Below are positions 1,298 through 23,919 of a stretch of DNA of 64,000 bases, one piece after another. The stretch is taken from positions 23,841 through 87,840 of the IMG/VR virus record IMGVR_UViG_3300042008_000003. One strand, written 5' to 3'. Positions within the stretch are counted from its first letter, which is position 1. The number at the start of each line of letters is the position of its first letter. The position numbers were made by a program, and so were the translations under genes. The notes beneath the pieces were generated by a model that was not told the DNA's origin, did no database searches, and worked only from the letters and a program-made list of their open reading frames with translations. This stretch comes from a virus.

Positions 1298-1376
1298 TGA
1301 GAGCGAACGGATGGCCATCCCCGCTAACTGCCAACTCGGTTAGCTAGTTCTCACCCTATTTAATCTAGTTGGAGAT
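1298..1376 (+). ncRNA. candidate structured cis-regulatory RNA (three-way junction plus pseudoknot to the RBS)
   Basis: Stems TGAGAGC/GTTCTCA, GGAT/ATCC and GCTAACTG/CGGTTAGC; loop CCAACT is complementary to AGTTGG, which overlaps the SD. Confidence 0.55.
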
Positions 1377-1384
1377 ACAAAAGT

Positions 1385-2350
1385 TTGAACTACACTAAAA
1401 TTTACAATGCTTTGGTGGAAAAAGTTAAGATTCGTGGTCTCGATAAGAGTCAACATGAAGGTTATTATGAAATTCATCATATTCTTCCTAAATGTTTAGG
1501 TGGTAGTGATGATAAGAGTAATTTGGTAATGTTTACCGCTAGGGAGCATTATATTGCTCACATCCTATTGTGGAAAATGAACCCCGGACATGTGGGTTTG
1601 TTCACTGCTGCTTTCTTTATGAGTAAAAAGAGACTGTTTAAGTTCAGCTCGAAAATTTACGAAGTTTTAAAAATAGAGCAAGCCAAACAACTAGCTGAAT
1701 TTAATTCTAAGAATTCTGGATTCAATAGTCCTGTATTTAAAGATTTAACCGGGGAGGTTCGTGGGAGACTCACCGTAGTTTCTTTTGATGATTGGGTAAT
1801 TCAATCTAACGGCCAAAGAACTTCAACTTGGACATGTCTTTGTACTTGTGGTAATTATTCAACGGTACGTGCTGGAAATCTGACCAAGAATAGTGGTACA
1901 AGATCTTGTGGATGTGATCGTATTGAAAAGACTAAAGCCAATACTGGAGAAAATAATAAATTCTTCGGTAGAGTGCACTCAGATCAAGCAAAAGCGATAA
2001 TGAGAGAGAAGAAACTAGGTCGTGCTGAATGGAACAAAGGCTTAGTACGATCAGATGAAAATAAGATTAAAATTTCCGAGGGATTGAAAGCCAGAAATCG
2101 ACCTGCATGGGAAGCTGGTACAGTCCTTACAAAAGATGAACAGTTAACTAAGTGGTTGATGGCTGACTATTACTACGAATTATATCTTACTAATACCACA
2201 CTAACTTCTGCAAAGTTCACCACTCTGTATAATCGGCTACATAACGATAATTTGCCAGCAAGAGCTTTTACTGCAATGCACAGAGAATTTGTTAAAGGTT
2301 GGATTCCTTTAGAAGATGAAAGGTGGATTAAGTTTTCTAAGGAATATTAA
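1385..2350 (+). CDS. HNH homing endonuclease with NUMOD3 motifs
   Basis: HHILPKCLGGSDDKSNLV...REHYIAH; DLTG..GRLTV...C.C.CG...SCGC module; FFGRVHS...WNKG. Confidence 0.85.
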   Translation: MNYTKIYNALVEKVKIRGLDKSQHEGYYEIHHILPKCLGGSDDKSNLVMFTAREHYIAHILLWKMNPGHVGLFTAAFFMSKKRLFKFSSKIYEVLKIEQAKQLAEFNSKNSGFNSPVFKDLTGEVRGRLTVVSFDDWVIQSNGQRTSTWTCLCTCGNYSTVRAGNLTKNSGTRSCGCDRIEKTKANTGENNKFFGRVHSDQAKAIMREKKLGRAEWNKGLVRSDENKIKISEGLKARNRPAWEAGTVLTKDEQLTKWLMADYYYELYLTNTTLTSAKFTTLYNRLHNDNLPARAFTAMHREFVKGWIPLEDERWIKFSKEY

Positions 2351-3858
2351 TGTCAGAAGAACAGGAAATTATTGGGCCTAGTAGTGCTAAACAATCCCTA
2401 ATGTTGAATCAGCAAGCTGATACGGCTATTCTAGGGGGGGCTATGGGCTCAGGAAAATCATTCATTTCATTGCTTTATCCTTTGAAATTTGCTGACGATC
2501 CTCACCTTCGCGGTATTATCTTCCGTAAGACCACTGGTGAAATCACCGCTCAAGGTGGTCTTTGGGAGAATGCTTGTGAAATCTATTCTAAAGTCTATGG
2601 TAATGCTGAAGAACTAAGGAAACAAGGCAAGAAAGGTGGTATCAAGATTCATATCAAAGATCTTAAAATTACCTTTCCTTCTGGCGGTTCAATTAAGTTC
2701 TCTTACCTAGAAAATTCCCGTGATTTGCTCCGACACCAAGGGGCAGCTTACACTTTTGTGCTATTTGACGAAGCCACACACTTTACTCAAGAAATGATTG
2801 AGTACCTTATTAAGCGTATGCGTTCGGCCCGCGCAAAACACAAGAAGCAAATGGTTCTCACTTGTAACCCAGATCCAGACTGGTTTGGTCTTGAGTGGAT
2901 TAAACCTTATCTCACAGAAGATGGTACACCTAATACTGATAATGACGGAAAGATGCGTTATTATGCAGTAGATAACGGTGACTACGTTTGGTCAGATAGT
3001 CGTGAAGAATTAGAAGCCATTTATGGTGAAGGAACAGATTCTGGTATTCGCAGTTTCACCTTTGTGAGCGCGAATTGCATGGACAATATTCCACTTATGA
3101 CTGCCGACCCAACATATCTATCTAATTTGAAAGCTCAGAGTACCGTAGATGTCCAACGCTACCTCTATGGTAACTGGTTTGTAAGGCCAACTAACTCAAC
3201 CATGATACGTCGTGAGTGGTTTGTCGAAAAAGATCAAGAACCTGCATGGACAGAGATAGTTAAAACAGTTAGGGCATATGACTTTGCTTTCGTTTTACGT
3301 TCAGATAAGAATAGTTCTCCTGATTATACTGTATCGGTTAAGATGAGTAAGTTGAAAGATGGTAATTACTTTATTCATGACATCCGAAGAACTCGTATTC
3401 TACCCGGAGATTGGATGAAGTTTATTTTAGACGCAGCTCTAGCTGACGGACCTAAAGTAGAAATTGTATTGCCTCTTGACCCTCAAACTCGTTATAGCAA
3501 CACATTCATATCTAAAGACCTGTCATCTAAAGGTTTTCATGTACGTCAGTTCAAAACTACAGGACACAAAGAAGATCGCTTCAAACCGTTTACATCTATT
3601 GTTATGAATGGTGGAATGCAGATTCTAAAGGATTGTGGTGCTGACTATGAAAATGGAGTTTATGACGATCTTAACTTTTTCTATAAAGAGTTAGAGTCTT
3701 ATGAGGGTGGTAAAAGATCCTCTGGTACTCGCCACGACGATCTTTGTGATGCTTGTAGCGATTCATTTGCTGCGGTAGCCTCTAGTAAGACTATACCAAA
3801 CTTCCTTGCTGGTTTAAAAGGCGCAAACCTTTCATATAATAATCCCTTCAATCAATAG
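2350..3858 (+). CDS. terL: terminase large subunit
   Basis: Walker A GGAMGSGKS, Walker B FDEATHF, TCNP motif, nuclease YDFA...HDDLCDA. Confidence 0.95.
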   Translation: MSEEQEIIGPSSAKQSLMLNQQADTAILGGAMGSGKSFISLLYPLKFADDPHLRGIIFRKTTGEITAQGGLWENACEIYSKVYGNAEELRKQGKKGGIKIHIKDLKITFPSGGSIKFSYLENSRDLLRHQGAAYTFVLFDEATHFTQEMIEYLIKRMRSARAKHKKQMVLTCNPDPDWFGLEWIKPYLTEDGTPNTDNDGKMRYYAVDNGDYVWSDSREELEAIYGEGTDSGIRSFTFVSANCMDNIPLMTADPTYLSNLKAQSTVDVQRYLYGNWFVRPTNSTMIRREWFVEKDQEPAWTEIVKTVRAYDFAFVLRSDKNSSPDYTVSVKMSKLKDGNYFIHDIRRTRILPGDWMKFILDAALADGPKVEIVLPLDPQTRYSNTFISKDLSSKGFHVRQFKTTGHKEDRFKPFTSIVMNGGMQILKDCGADYENGVYDDLNFFYKELESYEGGKRSSGTRHDDLCDACSDSFAAVASSKTIPNFLAGLKGANLSYNNPFNQ

Positions 3859-23103: not shown

Positions 23104-23919
23104 ATGTTAAACCCTTTTATCGAGCAAGACTATCTCAGTGAAGCCCGTGAGCGGGTGACAGAGCAATTCAAGTACGACCCTACAAGTGATACCGGGGCAA
23201 AAGTTTTTGATAAATATCTACAACTTCTTATTAATGCTCAAGTAGAGATACAGAAAGTATTTAAAGACTTGATGCAACTAAGAAGTCTTGATACTGCCAC
23301 CGGCGCTCAACTTGATGTTATTGGTAGGATTGTTGGTCAAGAACGTGTTCTTTTGAATGCTGACTTCTACGACTTCTTTGGTTTCCAAGGGGCAACTAAA
23401 GCTGCAAGTTTTGGTGAATTAGGTAATCCAACTGTTGGTGGTATGTTCTATGATTATGGTAAACCACTTGGTGGTAACATAGAACTTGACGACACTACTT
23501 ACAGACTTTTCATAAAAGCTAAGATATTTAAAAACACCACCTCATCTACCCCAGAAGAATTTTTAGCTGTAATTAACCTTGTTTTCGGGACCGATACGAC
23601 AGTATTAACTGAGGAGGGTGATGCATCTATCACCGTTTTGTTGTCTAGGGCTCTGACTGATTTTGAGCGGGCATTAATTTTCTATATTAGTAATGATCCC
23701 GGATATCCTTCAAGGTTAATCCCTAAAACAGTTGGAGTCAGGATAAATTTTGGTGAATACAATGGAGATAGCTTCTTTGCATTTGAAGGTGTCCCTGGTG
23801 CTAAAGGCTTTGGGGAATTTACAGGAACATATGGGTATGGTCTTGGTTGGGGCTTAAGCTATGGCGACAGCGATTTTATCATTACTGGAGATGGCGGAAC
23901 CTTCGCCACCCTATTTTAA
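23104..23919 (+). CDS. baseplate wedge protein (DUF2612-like)
   Basis: LDTATGAQLDVIGRIVG, LDDTTYRLFIKAKI. Confidence 0.85.
   Translation: MLNPFIEQDYLSEARERVTEQFKYDPTSDTGAKVFDKYLQLLINAQVEIQKVFKDLMQLRSLDTATGAQLDVIGRIVGQERVLLNADFYDFFGFQGATKAASFGELGNPTVGGMFYDYGKPLGGNIELDDTTYRLFIKAKIFKNTTSSTPEEFLAVINLVFGTDTTVLTEEGDASITVLLSRALTDFERALIFYISNDPGYPSRLIPKTVGVRINFGEYNGDSFFAFEGVPGAKGFGEFTGTYGYGLGWGLSYGDSDFIITGDGGTFATLF

Follow-up and report, generated by a model that had tools for sequence, protein, structure and literature searches.

Phages have to live with homing endonucleases, which are selfish nucleases, and the means by which these enzymes are restrained are known in detail for only a few T-even genes. 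How such a gene may be held in check at a packaging locus is the question raised by the 64,000-nucleotide (nt) stretch of DNA analyzed here, which we call the window (positions 23841–87840 of the 87.8-kb viral record IMGVR_UViG_3300042008_000003 from IMG/VR) and in which a free-standing homing endonuclease gene stands directly before terL, the gene for the large terminase subunit. The leader of the endonuclease gene folds into a compact RNA, in which the loop of one hairpin, presented by a three-way junction, pairs with the loop of a second hairpin that carries part of the Shine–Dalgarno sequence. The helices of this element are kept by compensatory changes in related uncultured phages, and we consider the element to be probably a cis-acting translational attenuator in the endonuclease mRNA leader. 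A previous sequence-only reading had proposed an uncharacterized structured RNA at this site, acting either as a translational switch or as an RNA partner of the nuclease.

The element and the genes that flank it lie on the + strand, and coordinates without an L number are those of the window. The core of the element (1298–1353) is a three-way junction of the helices P1, P2, and P3, as given by RNAfold and by covariation. P1 pairs TGAGAGC (1298–1304) with GTTCTCA (1347–1353) and contains one G–U pair; the junction strand J1/2, GAAC (1305–1308), leads to P2, GGAT-GGCC-ATCC (1309–1320), which is also a perfect 12-bp palindrome in the DNA; P3 pairs GCTAACTG (1323–1330) with CGGTTAGC (1337–1344), one of the pairs being U–G; and the junction strand J3/1, TA (1345–1346), leads back to P1. 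The loop of P3, CCAACT (1331–1336), supplies the 5′ strand of the kissing helix. An A/U-rich, single-stranded linker, CCCTATTTA (1354–1362; columns 64–73 of alignment A8), which is near-constant in length across that alignment and may be a ribosome standby site, connects the core to a further hairpin, P4, ATCT[AGTTGG]AGAT (1363–1376), with arms at 1363–1366 and 1373–1376. Its loop, AGTTGG (1367–1372), is the exact complement of the P3 loop, supplies the 3′ strand of the kiss, and overlaps the Shine–Dalgarno sequence GGAG (1371–1374), which begins in the P4 loop and runs into the 3′ arm of that hairpin, ahead of the TTG start codon at 1385. The stems, the CCAACT/AGTTGG pairing, GGAG, the TTG start, and the TAATG overlap of the endonuclease stop with the terL start were all correctly located in the sequence-only reading. 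Since the partner of the P3 loop is the loop of P4, the long-range contact is a loop–loop kiss, and the steric objection that would face an H-type pseudoknot whose 6-nt loop is paired throughout no longer arises; fully paired kissing loops are known.

Folding of positions 1296–1355 with RNAfold reproduces the three-way junction at −19.5 kcal/mol (z −2.57), a value equaled by 2 of 200 shuffles. When the leader is folded in a 103-nt context, the minimum free energy structure of which includes the P4 hairpin, z is only −0.83 and 36 of 200 shuffles equal it. A scan of both strands of the 87.8-kb genome for stems of at least 6 bp with a 6-nt loop and an exact loop complement 5–49 nt downstream returned nine hairpins, that of the window included. 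Given these nine hairpins and the weak z in the longer context, the single sequence is suggestive and not beyond chance.

Related loci, designated here by L numbers, were gathered by means of the protein of the 114-amino-acid gene upstream of the leader, terL, the HNH endonuclease family, and two DNA patterns of conserved positions, and a covariance model, R1, was used to confirm instances and to discard pattern false positives, among which were L041, L169, and 27 of the 28 genome-contig matches. Related contigs of uncultured phages supplied a final set of 31 instances, of which 29 are distinct. A refined model, R2, applied to 88 loci yielded nothing new, its sole match, L081, belonging to its own training set; three new loci obtained with N-terminal peptide patterns were without the motif, and all that a scan of metagenomes added was duplicate copies of two viral loci. 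In a search for cultured relatives, megablast of 900–2700 against 50,697 phage records gave no match, and blastn matched the HNH coding part in 69 phage records and the leader in none.

The alignments carry the case for the structure. With 13 sequences in a plain MAFFT alignment, pairing in the four helices of the sequence-only reading is 93.9%, as against 73.0% in shuffles and 26–43% when the partner strands are slid. In alignment A8, which holds the 29 distinct sequences and to which the figures below refer, the overall pairing is 93.5%, as against 75.8% in shuffles, none of 500 of which reaches it, and 30–43% when slid. Pairing reaches 99.5% in P1, five of whose seven pairs have changed on both sides, and 97.2% in P3, where this holds for seven of eight; P2, at 76.3%, is weaker because its inner pairs are often A–G. 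The kissing helix is paired in 173 of 174 cells (99.4%; shuffles 73.8%, 0 of 500 reaching the observed value; slid 10–46%), and five of its six pairs have changed on both sides. Eleven different combinations of loop and partner occur, with calculated loop duplex energies of −4 to −9 kcal/mol, and the two strands are exact complements in 28 of the 29 sequences. The sole inexact pair, CCGATA with AGTTGG in L028, keeps five of six pairs through two wobbles, and this locus has the appearance of a recombinant because L042 has the same loop with an exact partner. L166, L167, and L168 retain the P1, P2, and P3 stems of the window, while the loop, its matching partner, and the matching P4 all differ, a joint change that would be difficult to account for if complementarity were not under selection.

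P4 is 92.2% paired (shuffles 85.3%, 0 of 500 reaching it; slid 21–66%), with changes on both sides in three of four pairs and the arm variants ATCT/AGAT, ACCT/AGGT, ATTC/GAAT, and ATCA/TGAT; its support, which we regard as moderate, comes mainly from one covarying pair. As neither the kiss nor P4 was part of model R1, the alignment was not fitted to either of them. The frequent G–U pairs in P1, P3, and P4 are consistent with an RNA of the + strand. The check proposed in the sequence-only reading, covariation in homologous leaders, comes out in its favor for the stems as well as for the contact between the loop and the Shine–Dalgarno region, and the long-range loop pairing is maintained by compensatory changes, as in a pseudoknot or kissing loop. 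The element is real because homologous elements retain every helix in this way.

Conservation extends to unpaired positions and to the placement of the Shine–Dalgarno sequence. The bases G–A after P1, U–A before the P1 3′ arm, and C–C after P1 are invariant or nearly so, and the P2 loop hexamer occurs in two states, TTGCAA (n = 19) and TGGCCA (n = 10), both self-complementary and without intermediates. The Shine–Dalgarno variants GGAG, GAGG, AAGGA, and GGTGA always extend from the 3′ end of the P4 loop into the adjoining 3′ arm, so that the Shine–Dalgarno sequence of the endonuclease gene is contained within a conserved RNA helix, as in T-even-type leaders. The kiss partner always adjoins or overlaps it, and the start codon follows 6–10 nt beyond, with the exception of L081.

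No known RNA class was recognized. Rfam 15 at gathering thresholds gave 0 matches in the whole window; at E ≤ 10, the region 1100–1600 gave two chance matches resembling small nucleolar RNAs, both off the element; and in 15 related loci, the matches were limited to a group I intron and a transfer RNA (tRNA), neither of them on the element. The known small self-cleaving ribozyme classes are rejected on the grounds that the element has no Rfam match at E ≤ 10, in agreement with the earlier statement that no hammerhead, twister, or hepatitis delta virus (HDV) consensus is seen, and a tRNA or transfer-messenger RNA is rejected on the grounds that ARAGORN finds 0 genes in the window. To our knowledge, junction strands of 4, 0–2, and 2 nt correspond to no known ribozyme core. 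With helices that covary and Rfam without a match, the description as an uncharacterized structured RNA is upheld.

The genes that accompany the element bear on its role. It is present in 9 of 18 complete genomes of a phage group of about 88 kb (2 of 5 and 7 of 13), in one copy each and never more. An endonuclease-type open reading frame (ORF) lies downstream in 30 of the 31 instances, with PHROG families 655, 681, 953, and 374 as best matches; 18 of these calls were made directly from Pfam or PHROGs, 10 by homology, and 2 by identical N-termini. The remaining instance, L040, leads directly into a terL with an intein and has no free-standing endonuclease gene; the intein (L040 1011–3590, minus strand) contains a LAGLIDADG endonuclease (Pfam LAGLIDADG_3 and Hom_end). 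In L027 and L029, the element lies 3′ of terL, ahead of another HNH-type gene, and in L081, a divergent copy (25.6 bits with R1), the loop of which exactly complements its partner, precedes an HNH gene outside the packaging module with unrelated genes around it. The upstream neighbor varies: it may be an ORF stop 4–17 nt away (distances taken only from rows with ORFs of at least 100 amino acids, plus reading of the sequence), tRNA-Thr, a promoter-like site with a hairpin (L054, L060, and L020), or terL. In L038 (8388–8545) and L058 (1248–1403), which form one lineage, tRNA-Asn and tRNA-Thr genes lie about 12 nt 5′ of the leader.

The locus is a hot spot of endonuclease gain and loss. In L029 (3938–3995, compared with L028 3940–3990), the ‘empty’ junction of the 114-amino-acid gene and terL retains about 45 nt of the 3′ end of an HNH gene; this remnant, a footprint of endonuclease loss, forms a hairpin over the terL Shine–Dalgarno sequence. 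The earlier claim that the RNA travels with the endonuclease is borne out in part, namely by the 30 of 31 instances before endonuclease-type ORFs and by the contexts of L027, L029, and L081, but not by the loci with relatives of the window’s HNH family, 9 of 80 of which have the element and 71 of which lack it, nor by the single copy per genome and L040. Ownership by the endonuclease cassette is favored by the copies in L081, L027, and L029, by the absence of the element from the endonuclease-free junction of L029, and by the near-constant association with a nuclease; ownership by the packaging locus is favored by the single copy, by the use of one scaffold in one slot by four nuclease families, by the HNH relatives that mostly lack the element, and by L040. 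Both views are supported. The claim that the RNA is a partner of the nuclease finds no support, as the same RNA is shared by unrelated nuclease families. One copy of the motif lies on an 83,902-base contig (L156) that is binned in a metagenome-assembled genome of Sediminibacterium, which is at most a weak hint at the host and might be a binning artifact.

In the window, the endonuclease gene (1385–2350) starts with TTG and encodes a 321-amino-acid product with HNH and NUMOD3 domains (phrog_655, ‘homing endonuclease’, E 6e-53), and its DNA resembles the Mob-type homing endonuclease genes of T4-like phages in blastn searches. It is classified by these matches as a Mob-like free-standing homing endonuclease and not a packaging-associated HNH protein, an identity that was rejected in view of the 321-residue HNH and NUMOD3 product and of related genomes that have unrelated endonucleases or none in this slot. 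The stop codon overlaps the start of terL (2350–3858; Terminase_6N and Terminase_6C) in TAATG (2348–2352), and terL has its own Shine–Dalgarno sequence, AAGGA, within the 3′ end of the endonuclease gene. Upstream, separated from the endonuclease ORF by a 97-nt spacer, lies a conserved gene of 114 amino acids (943–1287), with its stop codon 10 nt 5′ of P1. Its protein has 157 homologs (E ≤ 1e-3), mostly on contigs of 84–94 kb, has neither a Pfam nor a PHROG match, and gave only two weak Pseudomonas phage matches in tblastn against cultured phages; an AlphaFold2 model with a predicted local distance difference test score of 84.3 found no match in the PDB at E ≤ 0.001 with Foldseek. An identity as the small terminase subunit, terS, is confirmed by none of Pfam, PHROG, and Foldseek.

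A sigma-70-like promoter precedes this gene (878–907; TTGACA, 18 nt, TACACT, with TG before the −10 element; 10 of 12 matches in a consensus scan) and is the likely source of the leader-bearing transcript. Scans of 1288–1385 found neither a sigma-70 promoter-like site nor a terminator-like site, and the leader therefore probably lies within a polycistronic mRNA; a terminator role for P3 is rejected, as no T run follows it, and in a repeat check for a promoter motif the words of the linker were not enriched elsewhere in the genome. The region 46–858 holds a second free-standing endonuclease gene (HNH_3; 106–858), whose own sigma-70-like promoter resembles that at 878–907 in type (TTGACT, 17 nt, TACACT, with TG before the −10 element); no copy of the leader RNA accompanies this gene.

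Based on these observations, the following mechanism is proposed for the attenuator. A transcript from the promoter-like site before the 114-amino-acid gene would span the leader, the endonuclease gene, and terL. The three-way junction would present P3 for pairing between its loop and that of P4, each of 6 nt, and stacking of P3, the kissing helix, and P4 might give an uninterrupted helix of about 18 bp. The Shine–Dalgarno sequence would be buried, partly in the kiss, which takes up two of its bases, and otherwise in the 3′ arm of P4; the kiss would lock the weak P4 shut, initiation by 30S subunits on the endonuclease gene would be rare, and the weak TTG start would add to the low translation. 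The element would thus repress rather than activate, and would do so constitutively. The leader anatomy fits the earlier suggestion of translational control through the Shine–Dalgarno sequence. Tuning of terminase output, which had been suggested as well, is not supported, as terL keeps its own Shine–Dalgarno sequence, and terminase need not be affected.

Among known RNAs, HIV TAR–TAR* and ColE1 RNA I/RNA II consist of two hairpins with 6–7-nt loops that are paired along their whole length. These contacts are intermolecular, whereas here a single mRNA carries both hairpins, 30 nt apart, and the three-way junction links them. RNA structure over the ribosome-binding site is an established limit on the expression of I-TevI, I-TevII, I-TevIII, segB, and Aeh1 mobE in T-even phages (PMC2988022). 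As in those leaders, a structure in a polycistronic phage transcript hides the Shine–Dalgarno sequence of a homing endonuclease gene and, in our case presumably, keeps nuclease translation low (PMC2988022). The T-even leaders are single stable, gene-specific hairpins, and a late promoter located within the structure allows them to be bypassed (PMC2988022), whereas the present element is a conserved multi-helix module common to four endonuclease families, in which no internal promoter was found. By this comparison, the element is best read as a new, more elaborate variant of the T-even leaders that sequester the ribosome-binding site.

The geometry also recalls the pseudoknot of repZ (ColIb-P9) and repA (IncB), where a hairpin loop likewise pairs just 5′ of the ribosome-binding site of the regulated gene; however, that pseudoknot activates translation, needs translation of a leader peptide, and is blocked by an antisense RNA (PMC8383071), none of which is evident here. 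The T4 gene 32 leader pseudoknot is likewise a conserved structure in a phage mRNA leader for translational control (PMC10690425); it lies far 5′ of the ribosome-binding site and nucleates cooperative protein binding, without Shine–Dalgarno pairing. The same source, from 2023, lists 8495 candidate RNAs from IMG/VR 3 (DNAVirus_N set), obtained with data and a method of a kind similar to those used here and some of them upstream of terminase genes, and its catalog may include this motif; in its main text, HNH is not mentioned and ‘endonuclease’ occurs once (PMC10690425). In the literature searched, no junction or kissing-loop leader of homing endonuclease genes was found described.

Several points weigh against the attenuator. 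Only one or two Shine–Dalgarno bases lie in the kiss, and P4 comprises four or five mostly A–U pairs. A plain hairpin would be enough for sequestration, which gives no reason for the invariance of the junction bases or the conservation of the P2 loop. For the kiss taken alone, two of five measures fail, since the number of pairs changed on both sides is no better than in shuffles (223 of 500 reach it) and neither is that of further pair types (418 of 500 reach it). The pairing of P4 is only modestly above that of shuffles, and the sequences are interrelated, so that the cell counts overstate the independent events. In L081, GGAG lies 16 nt from the ATG. Unlike in the T4 cases, no bypassing internal promoter was found in 1288–1385, and the four RNA-labeled runs that were aligned, of 12, contributed only contigs from relatives, which show no transcript ends and in which parts without coverage are uninformative. 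Finally, the sign of the effect is inferred, because the repZ pseudoknot, of similar geometry, activates translation.

The features that a simple occluding hairpin would not need are those that a regulated switch could use, in which a phage or host protein, a small ligand, or temperature would act on the junction or the P2 loop and time translation through the kiss. The near-invariant unpaired positions in the 29 sequences and the P2 hexamer, which is only TTGCAA or TGGCCA, would suit such a switch, as would the marginal stability of the kiss and the 4-bp P4, which falls within the switch or thermosensor range; yet no mutually exclusive alternative fold, no similarity to Rfam riboswitches, and no co-occurring candidate binding protein were found, the 114-amino-acid gene being absent upstream of the element in L040, L081, L038, and L058, and we regard a switch as unlikely. 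An activator or coupling device, in which the contact would keep the Shine–Dalgarno sequence open or recruit ribosomes, perhaps triggered by termination on the upstream ORF, appears distinctly unlikely. It has in its favor the pairing of a hairpin loop immediately 5′ of the Shine–Dalgarno sequence, as in the repZ and repA pseudoknots of IncI-alpha and IncB plasmids (PMC8383071), the ORF stop 4–17 nt 5′ of P1 in many instances, and the A/U-rich linker as a possible standby site. However, the Shine–Dalgarno sequence is paired by P4 and not freed, a terminating ribosome would barely reach P1 across the 10-nt spacer, to judge from the size of the ribosome footprint, and the upstream context is inconstant, being tRNA-Thr in L038 and L058, a promoter-like site with a hairpin in L054, L060, and L020, and terL in L027 and L029. 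General translational coupling to the upstream ORF is rejected because of this variation.

It is improbable that the compact junction with its invariant unpaired bases serves RNA processing or stability, whether as a site of the RNase III, RNase E, or RNase P type, as a fold protecting the 5′ end, or as a so far undescribed ribozyme whose self-cleavage would release the endonuclease message from the upstream part of the transcript. The polycistronic setting, without a terminator or promoter of its own, would accommodate such a role, as would two lineages in which a tRNA, a site of processing in any case, ends about 12 nt before the element, but there is no hammerhead, twister, pistol, hatchet, HDV, or other Rfam match at E ≤ 10 and no tRNA-like gene by ARAGORN, and the covariation reaching the Shine–Dalgarno sequence would be left unexplained. 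A function in trans, by dimerization through the P2 loop, by contact of the P3 and P4 loops between molecules, which would create specificity groups, or, in the extreme, as a packaging RNA near terL, is very improbable, even though the P2 hexamer is self-complementary in both states, the kissing specificity varies on otherwise identical scaffolds, and the element lies within the packaging module: the TGGCCA class of P2 forms a fully paired hairpin with a 4-nt loop (GGAT-GGCC-ATCC) and needs no dimer, the element is part of an mRNA leader bearing a Shine–Dalgarno sequence, L081 is outside the packaging module, and the Rfam scans gave no match at all. Scarcely any weight can be given to a role at the DNA level, for instance as a protein operator or as a site of endonuclease recognition or recombination, with the apparent RNA structure as a by-product. 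The 12-bp palindrome of P2 in the window and the position in a hot spot of endonuclease gain and loss might suggest it, but the common G–U pairs in P1, P3, and P4 would mismatch in DNA or on the other strand, compensatory changes between loops 30 nt apart have no DNA-level rationale, and the element is common to endonuclease families that are unrelated.

In other types of leader at this locus, too, the Shine–Dalgarno sequence is hidden in hairpins, in line with an attenuator. At least two other G+C-rich, well-folding leader types of about 100–130 nt precede homologous endonuclease genes at this slot (L002 3343–3460; L004, L008, and L047 1385–1500; L049 and L056 1375–1500; L020 2510–2735); they have the words GGTGAAC..GTAA and AACGGCCTCTG in common, none of them matches Rfam, and each may represent an RNA family not yet described. 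A small hairpin, in which the loop CT[CT]GTCGGGAGAC or GATGAC is conserved, recurs 5′ of leaders (L010 ~620–700; L020 ~2580–2610; L055 ~780–810; and just 5′ of the motif in L054 and L060), in some cases followed by a T run, and could be a terminator or a protein site. In L053, a group I intron (1213–1436; RF00028, 81 bits) lies directly 3′ of an HNH gene related to that of the window, and the structured ‘leader’ of this locus may be part of the intron.

Taken as an attenuator, one compact RNA module would restrain four unrelated endonuclease families at a packaging locus. Its covariation is of textbook quality and includes an intramolecular kiss onto a ribosome-binding site, making the element a small natural system for kissing-loop control of initiation, a candidate new Rfam family, and potentially a tunable translational attenuator part. 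The shifts in kissing specificity on identical scaffolds show the co-evolution of regulatory RNA and mobile genes. A bolder and rather doubtful extension is that the element serves as a portable ‘lock-and-key’ operator, in which a constant scaffold of P1, P2, and the junction is combined with a fast-evolving kiss that is matched to the P4 and Shine–Dalgarno sequence of the incoming cassette and is opened at a time set by a factor or an RNA. If so, the nuclease would be de-repressed whenever an exchange of cassettes left loop and partner mismatched, as in L028, and complementarity would be re-selected, while binding of a factor or of a second RNA copy to the invariant junction or the palindromic P2 loop could set when the kiss opens; the element would then be a regulated riboregulator of the truce between the packaging operon and its resident selfish nucleases.

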